Of a stretch of 31,175 nt of DNA, positions 652-14,147 are shown in pieces; within the stretch, counting starts at the first letter, position 1; each line of letters starts with the position of its first letter. The DNA is from a virus. Taxonomy: Duplodnaviria > Heunggongvirae > Uroviricota > Caudoviricetes. Location of the stretch: positions 1 to 31,175 of IMG/VR virus record IMGVR_UViG_2565956711_000006. One strand, 5' to 3'. The notes under the pieces are model-generated. The model was not told the DNA's origin and searched no databases. It saw only the letters and a list, made by a program, of their open reading frames with translations. The position numbers were made by a program, and so were the translations under genes.

Positions 652-678
652 AAGGCCCCATTTAGGGGCCGCTTTTAT
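652..678. terminator. bidirectional intrinsic terminator shared by the convergent ORF 1..648 and ogr
   Basis: GC stem GGCCCC (654-659) / GGGGCC (665-670) with 5-nt loop, followed by a T-run on the plus strand (gcttttat) and on the minus strand (tttatttattt). Confidence 0.6.
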
Positions 679-917
679 AATGCCAGCGATAACTGATCTT
701 CGCCGTGGTGACTTCTTGGAAAAGCTTCTTGTGGCACCATCGCGCCGGGCGCTGGCTGGGTCTGGTTTAGTGAACCGTCTATTTCCGTCATGCTGGTGAA
801 ACAGTACCCGCACAACATATTTTGACACTGGTGATAGCTGCGCCGCACAAGCAAACTCAGCTCAACACTGGTTCTGGTTTTTGCTATTGCACGGCAGCGA
901 GGACAGCGCATTGCCAT
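675..917 (-). CDS. ogr: late-gene transcriptional activator, Ogr/Delta zinc-finger family
   Basis: 80-aa product MAMRCPRCRAIAKTRTSV...YHQCQNMLCGYCF with C-X2-C-X22-C-X4-C spacing as in P2 Ogr (recalled); AGGAGG 7 nt upstream of ATG at 917; lies directly downstream of D as in P2. Confidence 0.8.
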   Translation of the reverse strand: MAMRCPRCRAIAKTRTSVELSLLVRRSYHQCQNMLCGYCFTSMTEIDGSLNQTQPAPGAMVPQEAFPRSHHGEDQLSLAL

Positions 918-2241: not shown

Positions 2242-3435
2242 ATGGCCACTAACTACCATCACGGTGTAACCGTCACGGAAACCACCGACCTTAGCACGAT
2301 GATCACCGACATTGATTCGGCGGTGATCGGCGTTGTCTGCACCGCTGATGATGCGGACGAAACAGCGTTCCCGCTGGATACCCCTGTACTGATCACCCGC
2401 GTGGCTAACATGCTGGGCAAGGCAGGTAAAACCGGCACCCTGTTTACCACCCTGAAAGCGATTTCAGACCAGACCAGCCCGCAAACCATTGTGATCCGCG
2501 TTGCTGATGCTGCAAATATCGAACCGCCAGAAGGCGGCACCGCACAGACACAGGATCAACTGGTTATTGGCGGCACCGATGCAAACGGACGCTTTACCGG
2601 CATGTACGCGCTGCTGTCTGCCGAAATGCGCGTAGGCGTGCGCCCGCGTGTGCTGGCTGTTCCCGGTCTTGATACGGAAGCGGTGGCCGCACAACTCGGC
2701 GTCATTGCCGAAAAGCTGCGCGCGTTTGCTTACGTGGCAGCGAACGGCTGCAACAGCATCGCCGAAGTGAAGGAATACCGCGAACAGTTCTCCCAGCGTG
2801 AAATGATGGTTATCTGGCCTAATTTCATCTGCTACGACACCAACGCCGGAGCGAATGCCACCGTGCCCGTGGGTGCCCATGCGGTTGGGATGCGCGCCAA
2901 AATCGACGCAACGCAGGGCTGGCATAAAACCATTTCCAACGTGCCCGTTAATAACGTGCTGGGGATGGATCGGGATATCTATTTCACGTTGCAGGGCACC
3001 GATACCGACGCCGACGAACTGAACGCAGCAGGCGTTACCACGCTGATCAAGCAGGACGGCTACCGCATCTGGGGATCGCGTACCTGCGACGCGGAAACGT
3101 ATATCTTCGAAAGCTATACCCGAACCGCGCAGATCGTTGCGGATACCGTCGCCGAAGCACATTTCGCCTATGTTGATAAACCGCTTACCCCGTCGCTGGT
3201 AAAGGACATTGTGGACGGTATCAATAAGAAGCTGACCTCATATGTGACGGCTGGCAAGCTGCTGGGCGCCCGCTGCTGGTATGACCCGGAACCGAATACC
3301 TCGGAAACCCTGCGCAATGGTCAACTGACCATTAAGTACAACTACACCCCTGTTCCACCGCTGGAAAATCTCAGCCTGGTACAGGAGTTCACCGACGAAT
3401 ATTTCGCTACGTTTTCCAGCGCAGTGAATAACTAA
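2242..3435 (+). CDS. FI: contractile tail sheath protein gpFI
   Basis: 397-aa ORF; MATNYHHGVTVTETTDLSTMI... resembles P2 FI; followed by tube and E/E' genes. Confidence 0.92.
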   Translation: MATNYHHGVTVTETTDLSTMITDIDSAVIGVVCTADDADETAFPLDTPVLITRVANMLGKAGKTGTLFTTLKAISDQTSPQTIVIRVADAANIEPPEGGTAQTQDQLVIGGTDANGRFTGMYALLSAEMRVGVRPRVLAVPGLDTEAVAAQLGVIAEKLRAFAYVAANGCNSIAEVKEYREQFSQREMMVIWPNFICYDTNAGANATVPVGAHAVGMRAKIDATQGWHKTISNVPVNNVLGMDRDIYFTLQGTDTDADELNAAGVTTLIKQDGYRIWGSRTCDAETYIFESYTRTAQIVADTVAEAHFAYVDKPLTPSLVKDIVDGINKKLTSYVTAGKLLGARCWYDPEPNTSETLRNGQLTIKYNYTPVPPLENLSLVQEFTDEYFATFSSAVNN

Positions 3436-3447
3436 CCGGGGGCGCTT

Positions 3448-3963
3448 ATGGCACTGCCTAAGAAACTCAAATATTTCAATATGTTCTTTGACGGGGATAA
3501 CTACTTCGGCATGGTGCCGGAAATCACCCCCGCCAAACTCACCAAAAAAACCGAAGACTACCAGGCGGGCGGTATGCCGGGTTCGGTTGCGGTGGATCTG
3601 GGCTTCGACGCTGGCGCCCTGGATATGGATATCACGCTGGGCGGCATGGATGCAGGGCTAATGAAAAAATGGGGCGTTACCACTGCGGACGGAATGCAGG
3701 TGCGCTTTGCTGGCTCTTACCAGGACGATGCGACCGGCGACGCCGTACCGTGCGAAATCCAGACGCGTGGCCGCTTCACTGAACTGGATCCCGGTTCGGC
3801 AAAGGTTGGGGATGATACTTCGCATAAGTACACCCTGAAAAACACCTATTACAAGCTGACCATCAATAGCGAAGAAATTATCGAAATTGATGTGCTCAAC
3901 ATGATCTACAAAGTTGCCGGTGTGGATGTGCTGGAAAAACACCGCGCTAACATCGGCTTATAA
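3448..3963 (+). CDS. FII: tail tube protein gpFII
   Basis: 171-aa ORF MALPKKLKYFNMFFDGDNYFGMVPEITPA..., P2 FII-like size and position. Confidence 0.9.
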   Translation: MALPKKLKYFNMFFDGDNYFGMVPEITPAKLTKKTEDYQAGGMPGSVAVDLGFDAGALDMDITLGGMDAGLMKKWGVTTADGMQVRFAGSYQDDATGDAVPCEIQTRGRFTELDPGSAKVGDDTSHKYTLKNTYYKLTINSEEIIEIDVLNMIYKVAGVDVLEKHRANIGL

Positions 3964-3977
3964 GGAAACCCGGCACC

Positions 3978-4313
3978 ATGAGCAAGACCAAAGAAAACAC
4001 CGTTATTCTTACCGCCCCTATTACGCGCGGTAAGACCAAAATCACCGAAGTGGCGATCACTTCCGTGCTTAAACAGGCTGGATCACTGCGCGGCTTAAAA
4101 GCCTATGACGTGCTGACGTCCAACTATGACGCGCTGGTTATTCTGCTGCCCCGCGTTACCGCTCCGGCACTAACCGCCGATGAGATTGCCCGAATGGATA
4201 CCTGGGATTTTTGCCAGTTAGCCAACGCGGTGGTTGATTTTTTGCAACCCTCTTCGGATCTGACCGCGACGGATACGGGCAACGAATCATCCGATGCCCC
4301 TGCGAACGCATAG
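3978..4313 (+). CDS. E: tail assembly chaperone gpE (zero-frame product)
   Basis: 111-aa ORF between tube and tape-measure genes; contains slippery TTTTTTG at 4238-4244. Confidence 0.8.
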   Translation: MSKTKENTVILTAPITRGKTKITEVAITSVLKQAGSLRGLKAYDVLTSNYDALVILLPRVTAPALTADEIARMDTWDFCQLANAVVDFLQPSSDLTATDTGNESSDAPANA

Positions 4314-4438
4314 AAGACCTGATGGCAGATATCGCCGTCATATTCCACTGGCGGCCGGTAGAGATGGACGCCATGACGGTACAGGAAATACTGTTATGGC
4401 GTGATCAGGCGGCTGCGCGCAGTGGTGGAGATCACTAA
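3978..4438 (+). CDS. E': tail assembly chaperone gpE+E', predicted programmed -1 frameshift product
   Basis: After T6G (4238-4244) the -1 frame stays open to TAA 4436-4438, encoding ...EDLMADIAVIFHWRPVEMDAMTVQEILLWRDQAAARSGGDH, and ends 1 nt before the tape-measure ATG (4439); canonical chaperone frameshift arrangement. Confidence 0.7.
4238..4244 (+). other. slippery heptamer T TTT TTG for -1 ribosomal frameshift
   Basis: ttttttg read in E frame as ..D-F-L..; the -1 frame is open downstream. Confidence 0.7.
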
Positions 4439-7372
4439 ATGGCAGACCGCAATTTAAATATCAGGGTGGCATTCAGCGCCCTGAATAATATGTCCCGCCC
4501 TGTCAACGCGGCGCGCCAGAGTGCCGCCGCGTTGGCGTCTCAAATCAATCAGACCAAAACCAGCATCAAAGGGCTTGAGCGTCAGGCAACCAGCTTCGAC
4601 CGCCTCACCGCAGCCAATAAAAAAACCACCGAACAACTGGCCCAGGCGAAAGAACAGGCCCGGCAAATGGCGGCGGCTTATGGCCCGTTACGCCAGCGCA
4701 GCGCCGAACAGGTTGCCGCCCTCAATCAGCAACGTGCAGCCATTCGCCAGTTAACCCAGCAGCAGAAAGGTGAGCAGACGCAGCTTAATCAGTTGCGCGC
4801 CAGCTTCTACAGCGAAGGCATTGCGATCCGCAGCGCCAGCCGGGCGACGGAACAGATCAACCAGCGCACTGCGCAATACAATCGCCAGCTTGCCGAACAG
4901 CAGCGACGGCTTGACGCTGTAAACCAGGCGCAGGCCCGTTACAGCCGCGCCAAAGAAACCGGCGAAAAGATGATGAGCGGGGGAATGAAAACCGCCGCAG
5001 TGGGTGCGGCAACCCTCGCACCTGTCGCCGCTGCGGTGAAATCCTACAGCAGTCTTGAAGACGCGATGAAGGGCGTAGCCAAACAGGTAAACGGCTTGCG
5101 TGACGACAGCGGCAACCGCACCCCGCAATATGAAGAAATGCAGCGGGCGATCATGGATGCCAGCGAAAAGCTGCCAATGGCAAACGGTGCTGTTGACTAT
5201 GCCGCCCTGGTCGAAGGCGGCGCACGTATGGGCGTCGCAAACAGCGATGATCCGTGGGAAAAACAAAAAGCCGATCTGCTGTCTTTCGCCAGCATGGCGG
5301 CAAAGGCTTCTGTTGCCTTCGAACTTCCCGCCGACCAGCTTTCTGAAAGTCTCGGTAAGATTGCCGGGCTGTATAAAATCCCAACCCAAAACATTGAACA
5401 GTTAGGCGACGCCATAAACTACCTGGACGATAACGCGAAGTCGAAAGGCTCCGATATTATCGACGTGCTCCAGCGCGTTGGCGGACTTGCCAGCCAACTG
5501 GATTACAAGCAAGCCGCCGCGCTGGGTTCCACCTTTCTGACGCTTGGATCACCTGCCGAAGTTGCCGCCAGCGCAACCAATGCAATGGTGCGCGAACTAT
5601 CGATCGCCACAGTACAAAGCGATAAATTTTTTGGTGCGCTGGATGAAATCGGCGTCAATGCTGAAAAAGTCCAGAAAAGCATGTCAGTGGACGCGATGGG
5701 CACAATCATTTCAGTGCTGGAAGCGTCCAAAAAACTTGCACCAGATAAGCAGGTAGCCAACCTTACTCAAATTTTCGGTAAAGAGTTCGGCGATGATGCG
5801 CAGAAACTTGCGAACAACCTGCCCGAACTACGCCGCCAAATAGAACTGACGCAGGGCGCAGCCGCCAAAGGTTCTATGAATCGGGAATCTGATATCAATA
5901 AAGATTCCCTTTCAGCTCAGTGGCAACTGACCAAAACCGGCGCGGTTAACGCATTGAGTTCAGCAGGGGAAACGCTCCGCGAACCGCTGATGGATATCAT
6001 GCTTACCGTCAGTAAGGTAGTTGGCAGCGTCCGCCGCTGGGTTGAGGCAAATCCGGCTCTGGTTGGCTCAATCATGAAAGTCACCGCAGCCATAGGCGCG
6101 TTGCTGGTTGTCGTGGGTGGCCTGATGCTGACCATCGGCGCAGTGCTCGGCCAGATGGCACTTGTTCGCCTCAGCTTCACCACGTTGGCCGGTGAAGGAG
6201 GAATAGCGCGGCTGACTGGTGGAGTAATGCGCCTGGGTGGTGCATTCCAGTGGCTTGCTGGCTCGCCTATGCAGGCATTGTTAAGCGCCGGTCGCATGGT
6301 ATTCTGCCCGCTTATCACGCTACTGGCTGGCATTTCTGCACCCGTCTGGGGGCTGATTGCTCTCTTTGCTGCGGCAGCAGTGGCCGTCATTAAATTCTGG
6401 GAACCAATACAGGCATTTTTCACTGGTTTCTTTAACGGCATCATGACGGGCTTACAACCTGTATTTGATGCTTTCAACGCTGTTTTCGCTCCATTAGCCC
6501 CAATCTTTGACGCGATAGGCTCCGCTATTAGCGGCGTTTGGGATTGGTTTACAAAATTGCTTGAACCGATCAAATTTTCCAGCGATGCGCTAGAAACTTG
6601 CACTACTGTTGGCGAAACATTTGGGAGGGTTCTGGGTACTGCAATAAGCGGTTTGCTTTGGCCGCTACAAAAACTGATGGAGGGTGTCGGCTGGGTACTG
6701 GAGAAACTTGATCTAATTCCTGCTGGACTTGATGCAGCAAACGCCAAAGCAGAAAGCCTTAAAAAAGATCCCGTTGTCTGGGAGTGGGATCCGCAGCAAA
6801 AGAAAATGGTTAAAAAGGATTGGCACTGGTCGCCGGATAAACCAAACCAACCTAAACCGCCAAAACCACCAATAACTCCGAAGCCAGTTGGCATCCCAGA
6901 CCTTATGGGAGCGCCAAACTTAACGCCGAAGATGAGCAAGAGTCTGGATAAAATCGCAGACAACACGGGAAAAATGGCGGCAAAAGACGGCCCCGGCGAA
7001 ATCGTCTTCAAGAATAAGCAGCCCTATATCCCGATCCGGGGCGGATATTCGGAACCGCTTAAGCAGGCGCAGCGCCAGCTACCATCCCTTACCGATTGGG
7101 TGACGCAGCAGACCGGATCGCTGATCGCTTCCGTTACACCGTGGCAGGTTGAGAAGCCCGCCGCACGGGTTCCCGTTTCGGCGTCGCCCTCTGCGGCTTC
7201 CGTCGCTGCGCTAATGCCTGCGCCGGGTGGCGATGTATATAACCTTAACTTCGACTTTAGCGGCCAGAAACTGGATGAAGAAACCATTATCAGGCGCGTG
7301 CGCGAAGAACTTGCGTTAGCGAAGCAGCAAGCCGACCGGCGCAAGCGTTCCCAACTGACCGATCACGTCTAA
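4439..7372 (+). CDS. T: tail tape measure protein gpT
   Basis: 977-aa ORF, coiled-coil-rich N-terminus, hydrophobic central region, Pro-rich segment; position after E/E'. Confidence 0.9.
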   Translation: MADRNLNIRVAFSALNNMSRPVNAARQSAAALASQINQTKTSIKGLERQATSFDRLTAANKKTTEQLAQAKEQARQMAAAYGPLRQRSAEQVAALNQQRAAIRQLTQQQKGEQTQLNQLRASFYSEGIAIRSASRATEQINQRTAQYNRQLAEQQRRLDAVNQAQARYSRAKETGEKMMSGGMKTAAVGAATLAPVAAAVKSYSSLEDAMKGVAKQVNGLRDDSGNRTPQYEEMQRAIMDASEKLPMANGAVDYAALVEGGARMGVANSDDPWEKQKADLLSFASMAAKASVAFELPADQLSESLGKIAGLYKIPTQNIEQLGDAINYLDDNAKSKGSDIIDVLQRVGGLASQLDYKQAAALGSTFLTLGSPAEVAASATNAMVRELSIATVQSDKFFGALDEIGVNAEKVQKSMSVDAMGTIISVLEASKKLAPDKQVANLTQIFGKEFGDDAQKLANNLPELRRQIELTQGAAAKGSMNRESDINKDSLSAQWQLTKTGAVNALSSAGETLREPLMDIMLTVSKVVGSVRRWVEANPALVGSIMKVTAAIGALLVVVGGLMLTIGAVLGQMALVRLSFTTLAGEGGIARLTGGVMRLGGAFQWLAGSPMQALLSAGRMVFCPLITLLAGISAPVWGLIALFAAAAVAVIKFWEPIQAFFTGFFNGIMTGLQPVFDAFNAVFAPLAPIFDAIGSAISGVWDWFTKLLEPIKFSSDALETCTTVGETFGRVLGTAISGLLWPLQKLMEGVGWVLEKLDLIPAGLDAANAKAESLKKDPVVWEWDPQQKKMVKKDWHWSPDKPNQPKPPKPPITPKPVGIPDLMGAPNLTPKMSKSLDKIADNTGKMAAKDGPGEIVFKNKQPYIPIRGGYSEPLKQAQRQLPSLTDWVTQQTGSLIASVTPWQVEKPAARVPVSASPSAASVAALMPAPGGDVYNLNFDFSGQKLDEETIIRRVREELALAKQQADRRKRSQLTDHV

Positions 7373-7382
7373 GGGCAATATC

Positions 7383-7832
7383 ATGATGATGATTCTGGGG
7401 ATGTTCCCCTTTTCACTGCAAACCACGCCTTACCAGAGTGCGAATAAAACCAACTCATGGCGGCACGTCAAAAACGATCGCGTGGGGAAATCCCCGCGCT
7501 ATCAGTTCATCGGCGCTGATGAAGAACCGTTCGTACTCAGCGGCACGCTGTACCCCGAAATAAGCGGCGGTGATGTGTCGCTTGTCATGCTGGAAACTAT
7601 GGCTTTTTCCGGGCGCCCGTGGCCCCTGATTGAAGGCACGGGCAGGATCTACGGCATGTATGTAATTGAGCAGATTACGCAAAACCGGACGGAATTTTTT
7701 AAGGACGGGAAGGCAAAGAAAATTGATTTTACGCTCAACCTGAAACGGGTAAGCGAGGACATACGGGAAAAGCTGGCGGAAATCACCAATGATGATGTGC
7801 TGTCTATGGTGAAAGCGGGGGTGAATTTCTAA
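7383..7832 (+). CDS. U: tail protein gpU
   Basis: 149-aa ORF MMMILGMFPFSLQTTPYQSANKTNSWRHV... immediately after T. Confidence 0.85.
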   Translation: MMMILGMFPFSLQTTPYQSANKTNSWRHVKNDRVGKSPRYQFIGADEEPFVLSGTLYPEISGGDVSLVMLETMAFSGRPWPLIEGTGRIYGMYVIEQITQNRTEFFKDGKAKKIDFTLNLKRVSEDIREKLAEITNDDVLSMVKAGVNF

Positions 7833-7943
7833 CTTTATTTTTTATGGCCAATACGTTCATTGTTGGCAGTGTGGTACCGAAATCTTCGGGCACCGTCACT
7901 TTTAACCGTGCTACAGCACGGTCATTTATGGCGGTGCTGTAGC

Positions 7944-7969
7944 TTCTATCAAAGGTTGGTTTGGGAGAA
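7944..7969. repeat. hix/gix-like 26-bp crossover site (left end of invertible tail-fibre segment)
   Basis: ttctatcaaagg tt ggtttgggagaa; inner 14 bp (7956-7969) is the exact reverse complement of 9791-9804. Confidence 0.7.
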
Positions 7970-8290
7970 GCGGCAAAACGGAATGTGGGAACAGGGGAAA
8001 ATCAGATACCTGATATGTCATCATATGCATCAGGTTCAGGCTGGCGAAAAATGCCAGATGGTTCAATTGAACAGTGGGGACGAATTAGTTTTCCTGGTGA
8101 ACACGGGCCTGTATCCGCCAATGTTTCATTCCCGATTCCATTTACACAGACACCGGGCATTGTAATTGTGTGCGATGGTGGTTTCGGGGGCGGGAATATG
8201 TGGGGGGCGACCAACTGGAGCACTACCGGCTTCATAGCTCACTGCAATTATGGTCTTGAAGGTGGTGCGTTTTTCGCTAAGGGCTGGTAA
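7958..8290 (+). CDS. alternative tail-fibre C-terminal exon (Hv'), silent in this orientation, no start codon of its own
   Basis: Frame open from the crossover site: [16 protein letters not shown]...[20 protein letters not shown]; shares LGLGE junction with H; stop TAA 8288-8290 overlaps the G' ATG. Confidence 0.7.
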
Positions 8291-8733
8291 TGATGAAATA
8301 TCTGTACGTAAACAACCTGGCATATCCTTACGAACTTCAGTCTCTTTATGTTGAAAAAGGTGAATGGCCTGAAGAAAAAGGTGTTGATATAGACGAAGTA
8401 ATTTTCAGGGAATATTTCTATGACACACCACCAGAAGGAAAATACAGATGTGTTGGAGAAGATGGACTGCCTGCATGGGCAGATATTCCTCCACCAACAC
8501 GTGAAGAACAAATTGCATCAGCCGAAACTAAAAAGCAGCAATTGATTAACCAGGCCAACGAATACATCAACAGTAAACAATGGCCAGGTAAAGCATCAAT
8601 TGGTCGTCTGAAAGGTGAGGAACTGGCGCAATATAATTTGTGGCTGGATTATCTGGACGCACTGGAGCTGGTCGATACTTCCAGTGCGCCAGATATTGAA
8701 TGGCCTACGCCTCCGGCAGTTCAGGCCAGATGA
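8290..8733 (+). CDS. alternative tail-fibre assembly chaperone (G'/Tfa')
   Basis: 147 aa; C-terminal LDALELVDTSSAPDIEWP parallels IDAVTATDTSTAPDVIWP of the minus-strand G; converges with and overlaps the 3' end of G. Confidence 0.8.
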   Translation: MMKYLYVNNLAYPYELQSLYVEKGEWPEEKGVDIDEVIFREYFYDTPPEGKYRCVGEDGLPAWADIPPPTREEQIASAETKKQQLINQANEYINSKQWPGKASIGRLKGEELAQYNLWLDYLDALELVDTSSAPDIEWPTPPAVQAR

Positions 8734-9307
8734 CATCCGGCGCGGTGCTGGTATCTGTTGCCGTCACCGCGTCAATGTAATTCAGCACAGCGTTAAGTCG
8801 GGTGTTTTCTGTCTGCATCAGCTTCCGCCCGGCCTGTAATTTCAGTTGAATCAGACTAATGGAAGCCATTGCAGTATCAATCAGTGACTGACGCTGTGCT
8901 TCTGCCGCGCCTACTGCGGCGCTATGCTGTGCCTCGGTATCCGTCACCCATTTCTCACCATCCCATTCATCGTATGGCGTTAATGGGGCGATAGTGGTTG
9001 TATTTTCAGGGTAATCACCCGGAACTGTGATTTCTTTGGTATCTCCCGTTTCGGTACTATAGACAACTTCACCGCGATGGTCTGGCACATATTCCCATGA
9101 ATTTAAATCTACAGAGCGACAGATTGCATAACCAGCTTTATGTGTACCTGGTGCATCCAGACAGGAACATGCCGGGATACCGACGCCGACAGCGAGATAT
9201 TCAGTTGATGTAGAAATATATTCCCGCGTTTCGCCATCATAGTTATGTACGATGATTTCCCCATCATTTAAAGCGTAACCGTCTTTTCCCAAAATAGCCT
9301 GTTCCAT
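8705..9307 (-). CDS. G: tail-fibre assembly chaperone gpG (expressed orientation)
   Basis: 200-aa ORF starting immediately after the H stop; conserved Tfa C-terminal motif. Confidence 0.85.
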   Translation of the reverse strand: MEQAILGKDGYALNDGEIIVHNYDGETREYISTSTEYLAVGVGIPACSCLDAPGTHKAGYAICRSVDLNSWEYVPDHRGEVVYSTETGDTKEITVPGDYPENTTTIAPLTPYDEWDGEKWVTDTEAQHSAAVGAAEAQRQSLIDTAMASISLIQLKLQAGRKLMQTENTRLNAVLNYIDAVTATDTSTAPDVIWPELPEA

Positions 9308-10852
9308 TTATGCAGCCCTCACAATGTAGTTAAATGCAATGTTTCGCGGGCTACCATCACCGGCGCCGGAACTGACATGATTGGTTCTATCCATTCGTTT
9401 ACTGTCATTTGTTGTTCCACTCCCATCCTTCCACGAATACAATAACCCGCCATCGCCAATGCTCAACTGCACCGCAAATACGGATGAACCGGATGAATAA
9501 ACATCTCCAGCCATGAGTGGGTTCCCTGTCCATCCATGCATTTCATGGTTATGTTCAAGGATAGATGCTGCCTGACTTGAAAGCAGCAGTCTCGCGGAAT
9601 CAACACCTCGCCCATCATCCCACCCGCGAATAAACTCACCGCGCAAATCCGGTAATTTTAACTTTGGGTAAGCCTTTGCCAGTTTTGGGTACTCTTCGGC
9701 AGAAAAAGGTGCACCGTTGCATTTCAGCCAGCCTGTTGGTGGTGTGGCTGAAGGCCACGGAACAGGCACACCAACGGGTAACGCTGAGCCTTCTCCCAAA
9801 CCAAGGTATTGGAGAATGCCGTTAACTGTCTTTCCCGATAAATCAGTTAAAGTGCTATCAAGCGGCTGCTTACCCGCCAGCGCATTCGTTACAGTGGTGG
9901 CAAAGTTTGGATCATTTCCCAGCGCTGCCGCCAATTCATTCAGCGTGTCCAGTGCAGCCGGGGATGATGCTACCAGTGCAGCAATTGCTGATTTCACAAA
10001 TTCCGTTGTGGCAATCTGCGTATTATTCACTGTCTGCGCCGCAGTAGGTGCGGTGGGTGTTCCGGTCATAGCTGGGCTTGCCAGCGGAGCTTTCAACGCA
10101 AGAGCGTTGTTAATGGTTGCACTGAAATTAGGATCATTGTTGATTGCAGTAGCAATTTCTTTCAGTGTATCCAACGTGGCGGGCGCACCTCCAATCACAG
10201 CAACCAACGCCGCCTGAACAAATGCGGTATTCGCCAGCTGTGTGGAGTTATTACCAGCCGTAGCAGTCGGCGCTGTAGGCGTTCCCGTCAGGGCCGGGCT
10301 TGCCTTTGGTGCATATTGTTTATGAGGGTCTGCCGCTGCGATGTGCGCCGCCAGTTGCTGATCTACGAAGGCTTTAACCTGGATTATCTGGTCATCAACA
10401 TACTGACGAGTCGCCAGTACTACCGAAGGGTCAATTTTCAGCGTCACGGCGGCGGTGCTGCTGACAATCAGGATCATGCGTACAACCTGTACGCGCCCGC
10501 TTCCCTCCTGTAACTGCGGCTTATACGTTTCCGCACAGTTGGCTACGGCAATCATATCGCCGTCTTTATCGAATAAACCGATTTCACGGATCCACCACCC
10601 GCCCTCGTCTTCAGGTATCACCTGCTCGGCAATAATCTGGTTGGCGTTATTCGGGTCAATGCTCAGACTATTAAGCGGCTTGCGGCGCAGCTCATGAACC
10701 AGCGCCGTTTGTGCCGGGTTCGGCGTCGGCAACACGCCGTTACCATCGCCTACAGCCATCTTGGTGATTTCAACCTGCGCACCCAATGCCGTGGCATTTG
10801 CCAGTTTCGCCGCGCCCACATTGGTTAGCACGGCATAATATTTAGTCGCCAC
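9308..10852 (-). CDS. H: tail fibre protein gpH (constant N-terminal part plus currently joined variable tip Hv)
   Basis: N-terminal region resembles P2 H (..AVLTNVGAAKLANATALGAQVEITKMAVGDG..); C-terminal tip has tail-collar-like motifs (PWP..GWLKCNGAPFS..LPDLRGEFIRGWDDGRGVD); the track starts at TTG 10873, but GTG at 10852 with GGAG upstream aligns better with the P2 H start. Confidence 0.85.
   Translation of the reverse strand: MATKYYAVLTNVGAAKLANATALGAQVEITKMAVGDGNGVLPTPNPAQTALVHELRRKPLNSLSIDPNNANQIIAEQVIPEDEGGWWIREIGLFDKDGDMIAVANCAETYKPQLQEGSGRVQVVRMILIVSSTAAVTLKIDPSVVLATRQYVDDQIIQVKAFVDQQLAAHIAAADPHKQYAPKASPALTGTPTAPTATAGNNSTQLANTAFVQAALVAVIGGAPATLDTLKEIATAINNDPNFSATINNALALKAPLASPAMTGTPTAPTAAQTVNNTQIATTEFVKSAIAALVASSPAALDTLNELAAALGNDPNFATTVTNALAGKQPLDSTLTDLSGKTVNGILQYLGLGEGSALPVGVPVPWPSATPPTGWLKCNGAPFSAEEYPKLAKAYPKLKLPDLRGEFIRGWDDGRGVDSARLLLSSQAASILEHNHEMHGWTGNPLMAGDVYSSGSSVFAVQLSIGDGGLLYSWKDGSGTTNDSKRMDRTNHVSSGAGDGSPRNIAFNYIVRAA
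9791..9816. repeat. hix/gix-like 26-bp crossover site inside H (right end of invertible segment)
   Basis: ttctcccaaacc aa ggtattggagaa, near-perfect palindrome; encodes ILQYLGLGE in the H frame; resembles remembered hixL/gix sites. Confidence 0.7.
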
Positions 10853-11456
10853 TTGCGATCTCCACGGTGTCAATTAAATGGATTGCCGCCCCGGTGTAAT
10901 CATCACCGCCCACGGCTATGGTTTCAGGAAAATACGGGTACACGGTTAGCGTATCGCCGGAATAACTGCCCGCGCCGATATACAGATCGCCGGTTGTTTG
11001 CAGGTGAAGAGACATTCCCAGCATATGACGGCTGCACGGCTTCACATCGGCGATCAGGCGTTCAAGTTCCTGATAGGTTTCTTCACTAATGCCCTGGTCT
11101 TCCACGCCAATATCCAGCGTGAAGGTGCCCGGTGCGGTGTCGATGTTCCACCACTCGTTAACCCGGATGAAGAAGCCGAACGGCTCCACAACCCGGCGCA
11201 TGGCGCCCGTTGTACCCTTGTACTTATGCAGGTAAAACGCATCGGCCACCGCCTTTCGTTTTGTGTTTATCGGCCAGGCCTCATCCCAGCGATCAACGGA
11301 GAAGGCCCACGCCAGATAGGGCAACAGATCAGCCCGACACGTCCACGGGTTCCACAACTGGCGCAGCGGCACGGGCACTTCACCCAACGACGCACAGACG
11401 CGCGCGGCGACGCGCTCCATTCGGCTGGCGCTGGGTGGTAACAGGTCATTACTCAT
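10842..11456 (-). CDS. I: baseplate assembly protein gpI
   Basis: ORF after J; ATG at 11456 (MSNDLLPP...) overlaps the J stop; position and size fit P2 I. Confidence 0.8.
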   Translation of the reverse strand: MSNDLLPPSASRMERVAARVCASLGEVPVPLRQLWNPWTCRADLLPYLAWAFSVDRWDEAWPINTKRKAVADAFYLHKYKGTTGAMRRVVEPFGFFIRVNEWWNIDTAPGTFTLDIGVEDQGISEETYQELERLIADVKPCSRHMLGMSLHLQTTGDLYIGAGSYSGDTLTVYPYFPETIAVGGDDYTGAAIHLIDTVEIASGD

Positions 11457-12360
11457 CGTAACCACCCACCGTTATGGTGTATTCGGTGCAGTGCGATGCC
11501 TGGTAGTCACTCAGCACAATATCCGCAACAGGCTGCGCCAGTTCCACGCGCTGGACGCCTTCGACGTGCAGGGCGGCGTAGATAGCTGAAAGACGGATAT
11601 CGCGCCCTAAGCGATTCTGCGCGGCAATATACGCCTGTAACTGCTGTTCCGATGCCTGCCGGACGGGTTCAGCTTCCGGCCCCGGATAGATGTAAAGCGT
11701 TGCATCAATCTGATACGGCACGATCTCCGCAGACTGCACCGTTACCCTGTCGGCCACCGGGCGCACTTCTTCATCGTTCAGGGCAGCAGCGACCACGGAA
11801 AGCAGATCATCGCTGGCCGTTCCGTCACCTTCGCGCGACAGCACCGAAATGGTGACGCAGGCAGGCGTAGGACTCACCGCCGAAATATCAGCTACGCGCC
11901 CGTCTGCTGAACGCCCCCAAAATTCATACGCCGCAGTTGGCCCGGCCACGCTCAGACCTTCAAAAGCCTGCTGGGTACGCGTGCGTAAATCTGGGTCTGA
12001 CTCCATCACGGCTTCAATTGGCGGTGTAACGCTGTCGTCTTCTTCCTGAATGGTCAGACGTTCAACGTTGAAATTGACCGCCAGATTATCCAGATCGCTA
12101 TCCGTGGAATAAGCCAGCATCACCGCGCGGGCTGCTTCATTCACCCGCTGGCGCAACAGCAATTCGCGATAGCAATTCTCTTCCAGCAGCATGGTGATCG
12201 GCTCCGATTCAAGCTCAAGCGTGCGGGCGATCTCTTCCTGCTCGTCTTCCGGGTACATCGCAATAAATGCCGCCTTGCGCTGCGCGAAAAGCGTTTCGAA
12301 GTCCAGCGGTTCAACCACCACGGGCGGCGGTAGCTGCGATAAATCGATCGTGCCGCTCAT
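11449..12360 (-). CDS. J: baseplate assembly protein gpJ
   Basis: 303-aa ORF MSGTIDLSQLPPPVVVEPLDFETLFAQRKAAF...; ATGA overlap with W stop. Confidence 0.88.
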   Translation of the reverse strand: MSGTIDLSQLPPPVVVEPLDFETLFAQRKAAFIAMYPEDEQEEIARTLELESEPITMLLEENCYRELLLRQRVNEAARAVMLAYSTDSDLDNLAVNFNVERLTIQEEDDSVTPPIEAVMESDPDLRTRTQQAFEGLSVAGPTAAYEFWGRSADGRVADISAVSPTPACVTISVLSREGDGTASDDLLSVVAAALNDEEVRPVADRVTVQSAEIVPYQIDATLYIYPGPEAEPVRQASEQQLQAYIAAQNRLGRDIRLSAIYAALHVEGVQRVELAQPVADIVLSDYQASHCTEYTITVGGYDE

Positions 12361-12719
12361 GCCTGGCCCCTCAATGTAATATCAGCGTTAAATGGCGTCT
12401 GATTGTCGGTGCGATTGGCCTGGATAGTGGCAACCAGCCGACCGGCACCCGGCGCGCTCAGGGTGATACTGGTCAGAGAGATCCGCGGTTCCCATAAATA
12501 CAGGGCGCTGTAGATGGCAGACATAACGCGCAGCTTCGTTATGGCGTTATCGACCGGCTGATCTATCAGGTTGAAAAGCTGTGAACCGTAAGCGCGGCGC
12601 ATTACACGGGAACCGATCGGCGTTAACAGAATATCGCCGATAGACTGCGCTATATGCTCGTTGTCGGTGATGGCATGGCCTGAACTGGCATTCATGCCGC
12701 TGTAACGGACTGTACTCAT
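12357..12719 (-). CDS. W: baseplate protein gpW
   Basis: 120-aa ORF, ATGA overlap with V stop; W-like position and size. Confidence 0.82.
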   Translation of the reverse strand: MSTVRYSGMNASSGHAITDNEHIAQSIGDILLTPIGSRVMRRAYGSQLFNLIDQPVDNAITKLRVMSAIYSALYLWEPRISLTSITLSAPGAGRLVATIQANRTDNQTPFNADITLRGQA

Positions 12720-13345
12720 ACCGGGCCACCTGTATTACTACCACCGGACTGGACGCCGCTATGTTTGTGAGAATGGACAACGACACCATTAGACGAAAGC
12801 GATCCACCTGAATGGGTAATATTGCCCTTCATTTCCCCGCCCTTTTGCACTTCCAGCGTGGCGGTGATCAGCTTGTTGGTGCAGACCACTTCCGGCGTGT
12901 CCAGGGTAACGCGCGTATCTGCCTTGACCGTTACCACCGGCACGGTGGCGGTAATGGATTCCGACGCGGTGACGCTTGCCGTTTTCACCCCGCTGACAAC
13001 CAGCGCGCTGGCCTCCGGGTCATATGAGATACGGGCGCCATCCGGGTGCAGGATCACGCAGGTGGTAGCGCCAGCATCTGGCGGCGGTGCGTCTTCGCTG
13101 TAAAGGCTTCCGGCAATGAATGCCGTTTCCATCTCACCGCAGGGGCACAAAATATAAACCTGTTCGCCCACTGTCGGCGCCCACCACGTCACGGCTTCAC
13201 CGGCGCGCGGCACTGCCCAGCGGATCCAGTCGGTTTTGTTCTCGCCGGTTTCGACGCGTGCAAGATACTTTTTCGTGTCCACTTCCAGCACGGTGCCAAT
13301 GCGGGCGAGATTGCAGATAAGGCGATAGAGTTCGTTTAAATTCAT
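12716..13345 (-). CDS. V: baseplate spike/central hub protein gpV
   Basis: 209-aa ORF MNLNELYRLICNLARIGTVLEVD...; first gene of V-W-J-I-H-G operon. Confidence 0.85.
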   Translation of the reverse strand: MNLNELYRLICNLARIGTVLEVDTKKYLARVETGENKTDWIRWAVPRAGEAVTWWAPTVGEQVYILCPCGEMETAFIAGSLYSEDAPPPDAGATTCVILHPDGARISYDPEASALVVSGVKTASVTASESITATVPVVTVKADTRVTLDTPEVVCTNKLITATLEVQKGGEMKGNITHSGGSLSSNGVVVHSHKHSGVQSGGSNTGGPV

Positions 13346-13483
13346 AGTGCTGACTGTTTCCCGTGGTGCCGGTTACGCTGTCCGGCGTCGCTTCCGCCCG
13401 GTAGCAGGCTTTACGACCGTTTCGGCTTTTGGGTTATGCAGTCAGTATCAGGAGTCGCGCGCGCGCAAACAACGCGGCGCCAT

Positions 13484-13501
13484 TGTGGCAGGTTGGTGAC
13501 A
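13484..13501. promoter_or_regulatory. TGT-N12-ACA dyad, candidate Ogr box for the V-operon late promoter
   Basis: tgt ggcaggttggtg aca; 20 of 22 nt identical to the FI-proximal element (cattgtNgcaggttgNtgacaa); candidate -10 gatact on the minus strand at 13444-13449. Confidence 0.55.
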
Positions 13502-13502
13502 A

Positions 13503-14147
13503 TCAAATCTCTTGCATGAAGGCGACAACAGTATCGGCCAGCCAGTCTAAATCACCCTCGGTCATGCCCAGGAGTTCACGCACCGGGTAGCGTGCACGGG
13601 CACCCGGCACCACGTTATCGACTTCACCGTACTGGTGAACGCTGGCGATTTCGGCGGTATGCCCCTGAAAGCCAACCACTGCCATGCCGCCCGTACCGTA
13701 AGCCTTAAGAAAGCGTGCGGTGCGCAGCTTGCGGAACATCGGATCCTTTCTGGTGCGGTTCTGCTTGGACTGGTTGAGATTGATTTCAATATAGCGCTGG
13801 ATATCGCGCTTATAGAACGTGCGCAGGGCACCGCGATCCACGTCATAGCCGGTGATTGCGCGGTGCTCACCCCTGCCCGTGGTTCGCCAGTTGCGTAACT
13901 CCCTGGCCTCATCATTCCATATGAACTTTATCCCGCCCTGGGTGCGCAGGATTTTGCGGCGGCGGGCCGGATAGCTTTCACCGCTGGGGTTCTTCTGGCT
14001 GGCGATACGCTTTTGCTGGCGCTTACGCAGCCCGATCGCAACGTCGCGCGTCAGCTTGCGACGGTGCCCCGGCGAAAGCTGCGCGGCCACGCTGGCTAGC
14101 CAGTCGTCTAACTGCTGGAAGAGGGGATCGGTTTGTTGTCCTGCCAT
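13503..14147 (-). CDS. S: tail completion / virion morphogenesis protein (gpS-like)
   Basis: 214-aa ORF in the P2 S position between R and V; assignment by position and general resemblance, not a firm match. Confidence 0.65.
   Translation of the reverse strand: MAGQQTDPLFQQLDDWLASVAAQLSPGHRRKLTRDVAIGLRKRQQKRIASQKNPSGESYPARRRKILRTQGGIKFIWNDEARELRNWRTTGRGEHRAITGYDVDRGALRTFYKRDIQRYIEINLNQSKQNRTRKDPMFRKLRTARFLKAYGTGGMAVVGFQGHTAEIASVHQYGEVDNVVPGARARYPVRELLGMTEGDLDWLADTVVAFMQEI

Follow-up and report, generated by a model that had tools for sequence, protein, structure and literature searches.

A probable Pin-type tail-fibre cassette without an invertase gene of its own in a complete Senquatrovirus prophage

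Organization of the tail-fibre locus

The DNA analyzed here, a stretch of 31,175 nucleotides referred to as the window, is a whole 31-kb prophage of the genus Senquatrovirus in the family Peduoviridae (the P2 family), and the region is 93% identical to the Salmonella phages SEN4 and SEN5 of the same genus. Its fibre genes form a P2-family H/G module, as indicated by the Phage_tail_fib N-terminal domain of H, the Phage_P2_GpU domain and the neighbouring genes I, J, W, V, gpU, D and the sheath and tube genes. The tail operon ends with gpU (7383-7832, plus strand; Pfam Phage_P2_GpU, E=4.5e-39), and the FI-U operon and the fibre genes are convergent, which is the Senquatrovirus order. A large inversion through the left of the two crossover sites described below, or an assembly artefact, was considered for this opposition and rejected because the order is kept in many E. 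coli prophages and in SEN4 and SEN5.

The constant part of the tail-fibre gene H (9805-10873, minus strand; Pfam Phage_tail_fib N-terminal domain, E=3e-65) starts at 10873 in the mechanical open reading frame; for the near-identical copy in E. coli EC09 (GCF_057125265.1), which matches this region at 99-100% identity, RefSeq places the start at the equivalent of 10852. It is joined to the currently expressed variable tip of 164 codons (9308-9802, minus strand; Pfam Collar, E=2e-14, H residues 368-415), which is 52% identical to StfE of e14, and then comes the chaperone gene of this tip, G (8705-9307, minus strand; 200 aa; Pfam Caudo_TAP, E=1.5e-29), whose product is 85% identical to e14 TfaE across 200 aa. 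A second module lies tail to tail with the first on the plus strand and consists of a silent alternative tip of 110 codons (7958-8290; Pfam Gp53-like_C, E=1e-7) and its chaperone gene G' (8290-8733; 147 aa; Pfam Caudo_TAP, E=1e-33), which shares 60% identity with e14 TfaP across 98 aa. The tails of G and G' overlap by 29 bp, the same as those of tfaE and tfaP in e14. The silent tip lacks a start of its own and there is an in-frame TAG at 7940-7942; annotation pipelines currently call it a free-standing gene. In MS10860 and ECONIH4 it is found naturally joined to the constant part of H. Neither silent open reading frame is disrupted, and each is 98-99% identical to its counterparts in active systems.

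The two modules are flanked by two inverted 26-bp sites, which a preliminary description of this DNA had assigned to the Hin/Gin/Cin layout and which are confirmed at 7944-7969 and 9791-9816. The left site consists of the outer half-site TTCTATCAAAGG, the core TT (7956-7957) and the inner half-site GGTTTGGGAGAA; the right site, inside H, consists of the inner half-site TTCTCCCAAACC, the core AA (9803-9804) and the outer half-site GGTATTGGAGAA. The 12-bp half-sites are imperfect and the 2-bp cores match, TT and AA being one dinucleotide in inverted register. The inverted repeat shared by the sites had been put at 14 bp; a repeat search found it to be perfect, as described, and one base longer (15 nt; 7956-7970 and 9790-9804), and by our own arithmetic chance alone would produce about 0.007 perfect inverted repeats of 15 nt in 4 kb. 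The right site does lie, on the minus strand, in the H codons for ILQYLGLGE, and the palindrome that had been called near-perfect counts 10/12. The exact 14-mer occurs at just two positions within the 31-kb window, those of the crossover sites, and no third, shufflon-type site was found in or near the fibre region with up to three mismatches to the 14-mer allowed. With two copies, the locus falls outside the class of multiple-inversion systems, which have more than two crossover sites and more than two arrangements; Min of p15B and the three-repeat locus in EPEC are examples of such shufflons.

Flipping the segment in silico (7958-9802 between the cores; 1849 bp core to core, including both cores) reproduced the swap that had been predicted. 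The result is an uninterrupted H' that reads on through ILQYLGLGE into the 110-codon tip, which replaces the 164-codon tip, while G' replaces G downstream of H; a Collar tip is exchanged in frame for a Gp53-like_C tip, each with a Caudo_TAP chaperone. In the cell, a serine invertase of the Hin/Gin/Cin/Pin family would exchange strands at the 2-bp cores and turn the present orientation, with the Collar tip and G, into one in which the constant part of H is fused in frame to the gp53-like tip and followed by G'. Such a flip would give the fibre a different receptor-binding end, and probably a different receptor.

Known inversion systems and the missing invertase

The segment resembles the P segment of e14, a cryptic prophage of E. 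coli K-12, both in arrangement (one pair of tip and chaperone followed by a second pair that reads the other way) and in size (1849 bp compared with 1829 bp in e14, core to core). The e14 segment is inverted by PinE in cis and by PinQ of the Qin prophage in trans (PMC12529663). The comparison with pix that had been proposed proved informative: TTCTCCCAAACC AA, the inner half-site plus core, is an exact match to the e14 P-segment (pix) sites, whereas the gix sites (TTATCCAAAACC TC GGTTTACAGGAA) differ in sequence. Moreover, the 14-mer is present exactly twice, inverted, in every pix-type two-tip/two-chaperone locus compared (L001, L003, L005-L008 and e14) and is not present in the single-tip relatives L002, L004 and SEN5. 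Since it is paired in two-tip loci and absent from single-tip ones, the repeat is more than conserved coding sequence, the alternative that the preliminary description had itself raised. The two systems also differ. The pinE gene directly adjoins the e14 segment, and no invertase is encoded in the window; the window is a complete P2-family prophage and e14 a lambdoid remnant; and the second tip is a gp53-like domain in the window but StfP in e14.

The G segment of Mu (Gin) and the C segment of P1 (Cin) likewise join a constant fibre N-terminus to one of two tips, each with a chaperone, by means of 26-bp sites with a 2-bp core. Their tips are unrelated to those of the window, only G' being weakly similar to Mu U' (30% over 73 aa), and, unlike the window, Mu and P1 each encode their own invertase. 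Contrary to what had been supposed, switches of this kind are not new to the P2 family. Sequencing and PCR in EPEC E2348/69 (Goldberg et al. 2014; PMC4272514) have documented phase-variable tail-fibre inversions for two P2-like prophages, invertases and inverted neighbouring genes are frequent in the P2 Z/fun hotspot (bioRxiv 10.1101/2024.10.15.618418), and a programmed inversion is likely in Fels-2 (PMC7953296). In the P2-like prophages of EPEC, ST131 strain 4224, MS10860 and Fels-2, the P2-family H gene is interrupted by the same kind of segment as in the window. These prophages have the canonical P2 order, with the segment and the sheath gene FI on either side of the invertase, whereas the window has the Senquatrovirus order and no invertase. 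The works cited in PMC4272514 include Kutsukake 2006 on Fin of Fels-2 and Nguyen 2001 on carotovoricin Er.

The preliminary description took the switch to be intact, which it is not. A tblastn search of the whole window with a sibling invertase returned no invertase (best E=5), and blastn detected no DNA in the window resembling five invertase genes or their leaders (best E=0.06). An invertase gene is present in the siblings L002, L003, L004, L023 and L024, and also in L005-L007; in the siblings it encodes a 193-aa serine invertase and is situated between gpU and the left site. The siblings 2020N21-246, 2020N21-246-1 and 730V1 share with the window the fieF-adjacent integration site, the first open reading frame and a backbone that is 95-96% identical, and they also have a two-tip/two-chaperone cassette with equivalent sites. 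They differ in carrying the invertase (WP_021567694.1) and in their left outer half-site, TTTTCAAAAACG, where the window has TTCTATCAAAGG. The latter is within the range of the invertase-proximal half-sites of relatives (for example, CCTTTTTTATAA in LR-33, outward from the core) and, as a point against the reading preferred below, is unlike those of most relatives; it is a candidate binding half-site.

The 5' part of an invertase gene is where the Fis enhancer is normally located, and nothing homologous to such 5' regions was found in the window. Hin-family invertases need this enhancer, bound by Fis and placed some 100 bp away from one of the sites (PMC3798978). A degenerate scan for Fis motifs spaced 48 bp apart had no power, as it also missed the positive controls, Mu gin and e14 pinE. 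A cryptic cis enhancer that is not recognisable by sequence may be present, for instance in the near-invariant spacer between gpU and the left site. Paired tips and chaperones with pix-type sites need an invertase and an enhancer before a working switch can be inferred.

Orientation and cassette exchange in relatives

Both orientations occur within the cassette family. The P2-like prophages L006 and L007, which have an adjacent invertase, contain the same cassette with identical Tfa proteins in opposite orientations, at 95-99% identity to that of the window. Matches in other prophages (up to 98-99% identity) break off at the two sites, and the segment is inverted relative to its own flanks in L007, L003 and L008. 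In particular, 2020N21-246 and 2020N21-246-1, two isolates of the same E. coli strain, carry an invertase-bearing sibling prophage (L023 and L024) whose two copies agree at 100% identity across 11,414 bp save for an inversion in situ: a block of 1,826 bp, delimited by the equivalent sites, is exactly reverse-complemented. In 5,426 E. coli genomes, at a coverage threshold of at least 80%, the native-type junction was found in 124 and the flipped-type junction in 10.

Opposite orientations are also seen among invertase-less relatives (the window and EC09 versus ECONIH4 and NA3664), with collinear flanks. These could reflect continued flipping without a cis invertase, or cassettes that were independently acquired. 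Between ECONIH4 and the window the segment is 87-89.5% identical and the flanks are 96-97.5% identical, and the greater divergence of the segment fits independent acquisition rather than flipping in situ. Scans of E. coli genomes and of contigs of metagenomic and viral origin gave no near-identical invertase-less prophage with a flipped cassette; the best flipped relative in those scans is 90% identical and thus no twin.

The spacer between gpU and the left site (7833-7943), the position of the invertase gene in the siblings, holds a 34-bp palindrome (7910-7943) that went unflagged in a scan for terminators. It also holds, at 7885-7937, an inverted 51-bp copy of the spacer that separates gpU from the invertase gene in invertase-bearing relatives. 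Excision by the invertase of its own gene was explored through a search for TTCTATCAAAGG around the 3' ends of invertase genes in relatives, where it was not found, and this candidate gained no support; L003 is a poor ancestor proxy at that position. Homology ends exactly past the left core in 14 related sequences. In a rare invertase-less clade, the near-invariant left flank stops at the crossover core and then leads into nine different cassettes; all nine continuations begin at the core, which points to recombination there later than the origin of the flank. L016, for instance, is identical to the window at 99.9% in the left flank and 97.4% in the constant part of H, and has a different cassette throughout between the sites. 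In addition, copies 98-99% identical to the cassette of the window sit between unrelated outer flanks, which rules out flanking homology as the origin of the junction. Because the flank ends at the core in nine contexts and the cassette of L016 differs between the same sites, the sequences suggest that prophages exchange receptor-binding modules with one another at these sites.

State and significance of the switch

Our preferred reading, with a probability of roughly 0.8, is that the window contains a genuine Pin-type (e14-like) cassette in the H gene of a complete Senquatrovirus prophage that has lost its own invertase. The Fis-dependent enhancer would have been lost with the invertase gene, and the loss of both would make the switch non-autonomous. 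It would then be locked in the Collar/G state unless the invertase of a co-resident prophage acts on it, and because there would be no enhancer in cis, such flipping should be rare.

The alternative that survives best, and that we regard as only a little less than an even bet, is that of a frozen relic, in which no meaningful inversion rate persisted after the loss of invertase and enhancer and the silent tip and G' have not yet decayed. The lack of an invertase or homologous DNA in the window, the dependence of Hin-family enzymes on a Fis-bound enhancer (PMC3798978) and the failure of our scans to return a near-identical invertase-less pair with opposite orientations all favour it. So do some of the invertase-less relatives, with degenerate inner repeats in L016 (GGTTTGGAAGAT versus GGTCTGGGAGAA) and ECONIH5 (CAATTGGGAGAA versus GGTCTGGGAACG), and the loss of the second cassette in L014, L015, L018 and L021. 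In the window, however, both inner half-sites are perfect and the silent reading frames are intact and close to active copies, and the nine continuations that start at the core of the invertase-less flank also speak against a relic.

A more tentative possibility is that the switch still inverts and exchanges through the Pin-family invertases of other prophages, its left flank serving for docking. PinQ of Qin acts in trans on an e14 segment with the same inner repeat, and pinE-like DNA is found in 4,826 of the 5,426 E. coli genomes (89%; median copy number 2), so that an enzyme able to act in trans is at hand in most cases. The two orientations of invertase-less relatives between collinear flanks, the different cassette of L016 beside a near-identical flank and constant part of H, and the occurrence of the window's cassette within unrelated outer flanks are also in line with this possibility. 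Against it, e14 keeps its own pinE, and probably its enhancer, in cis and none is recognisable in the window, and the segment of ECONIH4 is more diverged than its flanks. Far less probable than either is that the repeat is mere conserved coding sequence (the GLGE motif of fibre tips) or chance: both copies do lie in, or in frame with, fibre coding sequence and encode LGLGE, but this reading is effectively refuted by the distribution of the 14-mer, always an inverted pair at cassette borders, and by the exact L023/L024 inversion ending in these sites, and is further opposed by the identity to the experimentally inverted e14 sites and the homology breakpoints at the cores.

Taken as an invertible cassette, the locus follows a textbook logic (Mu, P1, e14), and since host-range switches in P2-type H genes are already documented in P2-like prophages, it extends the list of examples without adding a principle. 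The evolutionary lead, that cores may serve as points of cassette exchange, is more interesting than the switch itself. In its most specific form, which we consider rather unlikely, the invertase-less Senquatrovirus clade would keep a near-invariant flank for docking, made up of the final 45 bp of gpU, the 124-bp spacer that contains the palindrome, the outer half-site and the core, and the invertases of co-resident prophages would flip and swap whole cassettes at the 2-bp cores. If true, this would be a natural form of recombinase-mediated cassette exchange, in which host range is a shared resource serviced in trans. Exchange at these sites would bear on how host range changes in temperate phages, and in the tailocins or therapeutic phages derived from them.

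Crossover sites and the two fibre tips

Two 26-bp crossover sites, each made up of a half-site, a 2-bp core and a second half-site, bound a cassette that reaches into the P2-type tail-fibre gene H. The left site lies at 7944-7969 (TTCTATCAAAGG TT GGTTTGGGAGAA) and the right site at 9791-9816 (TTCTCCCAAACC AA GGTATTGGAGAA), where the minus strand codes for ILQYLGLGE within H. Their cores are 1849 bp apart, in agreement with the segment length in the preliminary description, and the inverted repeat that they share, described there as 14 bp long, is perfect over 15 nt (7956-7970 and 9790-9804) in a repeat search of the window. The exact 14-mer has no further copies in the window. Every fetched pix-type locus with two tips and two chaperones (L001, L003, L005-L008 and the E. 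coli K-12 cryptic prophage e14) contains exactly two copies of it, inverted to each other, and the single-tip relatives L002, L004 and SEN5 contain none. Matches to the segment in hundreds of other prophages (up to 98-99% identity), some with unrelated backbones, end at both sites. Conservation of coding sequence alone does not, therefore, account for the repeat.

In gene H (mechanically called ORF 9308-10873, minus strand), the N-terminal fibre domain is of the P2 type (E=3e-65) and the current tip contains a Collar domain; for the near-identical copy in the E. coli EC09 prophage, RefSeq places the start of H at the equivalent of 10852. The silent tip (7958-8290, 110 codons) contains a Gp53-like_C domain, and Caudo_TAP chaperones are encoded by both G' (8290-8733), which belongs to the silent tip, and G (8705-9307), which belongs to the current one. 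The upstream gene was identified as gpU by domain search. Reversing the DNA between the cores in silico yields an uninterrupted H' in which ILQYLGLGE runs on into the silent tip, the 110-codon tip takes the place of the 164-codon tip, and the gene downstream of H becomes G' instead of G. The in-frame exchange of tip and chaperone proposed from the sequence alone is thereby reproduced.

Two further features were observed near these genes. A 32-codon ORF at 7844-7942 (MANTFIVGSVVPKSSGTVTFNRATARSFMAVL), outside the cassette, is in the frame of the silent tip, with a single TAG and five codons between them; in e14 the stfE ORF also starts outside the invertible P segment. An 18-nt inverted repeat (94% complementary; 8905-8922 and 10036-10053) between G and the constant part of H is probably a compositional effect, since both arms are GC-rich alanine-codon runs.

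Inversion in related prophages and known systems

The most direct evidence for both orientations is a sibling prophage in two isolates of one E. coli strain, 2020N21-246 and 2020N21-246-1 (L023 and L024), which has the integration site and first ORF of the window, a backbone 95-96% identical to it, and a 193-aa serine invertase encoded between gpU and the left site. The two copies are 100% identical over 11,414 bp apart from one 1,826-bp block (locus positions 8610-10435) that is an exact reverse complement and whose endpoints fall within the equivalent sites. This inversion is a natural demonstration of switching in an invertase-bearing sibling prophage. Two canonical P2-like prophages, in ST131 strain 4224 and MS10860, also contain the cassette of the window, with an invertase beside it and Tfa proteins that are identical, but in opposite orientations relative to the constant part of H and the invertase. 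A count over 5,426 complete E. coli genomes, at a coverage threshold of 80% or more, gave 124 with the native-type H junction and 10 with the flipped type.

A 99% identical copy of the cassette, with its own invertase, is present in LR-33 (L005, 2886-5622) within a non-P2-like prophage remnant, which has baseplate J/gp47 and DUF2612 genes and adjoins tonB and yciI. As this copy shows, the cassette moves among tail modules that are unrelated to one another.

When aligned to known families, the sites match e14 pix in their inner half-site and core, which are identical to those of the P-segment sites fetched from MG1655 (CTCTCGAAAACC TT GGTTTGGGAGAA and TTCTCCCAAACC AA CGTTTATGAAAA), whereas the gix sites of Mu have the same architecture but a different sequence. 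A 2025 paper gives the e14 repeats as TTGGTTTGGGAGAAGG / CCTTCTCCCAAACCAA, the same as in MG1655, and documents by sequencing and qPCR that the P segment is inverted by PinE and, in trans, by PinQ of the Qin prophage (PMC12529663). Identity to the e14 proteins is 85% for G (against TfaE), 52% for the H tip of the window (against StfE) and 60% over 98 aa for G' (against TfaP). Mu G/Gin, P1 C/Cin and e14 P/Pin share this mechanism. [quoted passage not shown]

The observation in the preliminary description is, as a whole, borne out by the sequence. Its interpretation stands as regards a Pin-type, in-frame switch of tip and chaperone, but the recombinase is absent from the window and the claim of novelty for the P2 family fails, since such switches are already documented: phase-variable tail-fibre inversions in two P2-like EPEC prophages, one with three repeats (Goldberg et al. 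2014, PMC4272514); the P2 Z/fun hotspot, which often encodes a DNA invertase and has adjacent genes inverted (2024 preprint, bioRxiv 10.1101/2024.10.15.618418); and a likely programmed inversion in Fels-2 (PMC7953296).

Prophage backbone

The window consists of one complete prophage (ogr through int), whose integration site adjoins fieF and pfkA, and the EC09 prophage is 99.5% identical to it across the first 11 kb of the window. The closest isolated relatives are the Salmonella phages SEN4 and SEN5 (93% identity; genus Senquatrovirus, family Peduoviridae). The gene order is the unusual one of Senquatrovirus: the FI-FII-E-E'-T-U tail operon (2242-7832), from sheath FI through gpU, is on the plus strand, and the minus strand carries D (966-2084) and the fibre and baseplate genes (8705-14147). 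This arrangement makes the tail operon and G convergent, and the operon is inverted relative to canonical P2. An artefact can be rejected, as the same order is kept in many E. coli prophages and in SEN4 and SEN5.

At the prophage end beside ogr, a 215-aa ORF (1-648) with a hydrophobic N-terminus has no Pfam match; the same protein (WP_016246766.1) is found in sibling prophages, and the ORF may, therefore, be cargo (a moron). The ogr-like zinc-finger ORF (675-917, minus strand) is full length in the window (80 aa), but is annotated by RefSeq as a truncated pseudogene in the EC09 prophage (L001, 3837-3917).

Loss of the invertase and fate of the cassette

No invertase was detected in the window by tblastn with a sibling invertase (best E=5), and five invertase genes, searched by blastn together with their leaders, returned only chance matches of 13-28 nt. 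In the siblings L002, L003, L004, L023 and L024 the invertase is encoded between gpU and the left site, an interval of only 111 bp in the window. In the Hin, Gin and Cin systems the enhancer is situated inside the invertase gene, in its 5' part, and, by analogy, that of the window would have been lost along with the gene. In Hin, the Fis-bound enhancer lies ~100 bp from one site and is required for activation of the wild-type enzyme (PMC3798978). A degenerate Fis scan missed its positive controls and so has no power.

The left flank of the window is rare, occurring in 5 of 5,426 genomes (EC09, ECONIH5, ECONIH4, NA3664 and CAVP776), 4 metagenome contigs and 6 IMG/VR prophage contigs, and the DNA fetched from these carriers contains no invertase. 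In an alignment of 14 of them, ~7790-7957 (the last ~45 bp of gpU and a 124-bp spacer including the core) is almost invariant, with 4 variable columns, even though half of these sequences reach only ~78% identity in the remainder of gpU. Homology stops exactly past AAAGGTT in all 14, with nine different continuations. L016, for instance, is 99.9% identical to the window in the left flank and 97.4% in the constant part of H, with a completely different cassette between the sites; in ECONIH4 collinear flanks (96-97.5%) enclose an inverted cassette (87-89.5%), whose breakpoints lie at 7956-7970 and 9790-9804. Four members of this clade have a single chaperone only, abutting the core, and the inner repeats are degenerate in several. 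Because the cassette of the window is 98-99% identical to copies with unrelated outer flanks, its left junction must have formed at the core itself. Such a junction would be the expected product of site-specific recombination at a quasi-site, a type of site that P1 Cin is known to use.

The spacer also hints at how the gene was lost. At 7885-7937, the gpU-invertase spacer of the relatives L003, L002 and SEN5 recurs as a 51-bp inverted copy with ~86% identity (local alignment score 62 inverted and 31 forward; best of 300 shuffles, 24), which would fit an ancestor whose invertase region was first inverted and whose gene was then lost. SEN5 itself has a single-tip fibre but still retains, between gpU and its chaperone gene (L012, about 12750-12850), a ~100-bp 3' remnant of the invertase gene. 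A 34-bp near-perfect palindrome at 7910-7943 (GCTACAGCACGGTCAT TT ATGGCGGTGCTGTAGC) directly abuts the left site of the window and was not flagged by a terminator scan.

That the cassette is now effectively frozen is a reading to which we give slightly less than even odds. Rare flipping or exchange in trans is a more tentative proposal: 89% of E. coli genomes contain pinE-like DNA (median, two copies), so that an enzyme acting in trans is usually available, but the apparent lack of a cis enhancer points to flipping that is rare at most. The peculiarity of the locus is that it is an orphan, in which the recombinase is absent and competent-looking sites and two intact modules are retained. The best-supported mechanism, with a probability of roughly 0.8, is a Pin-type inversion switch, non-autonomous in the present copy.
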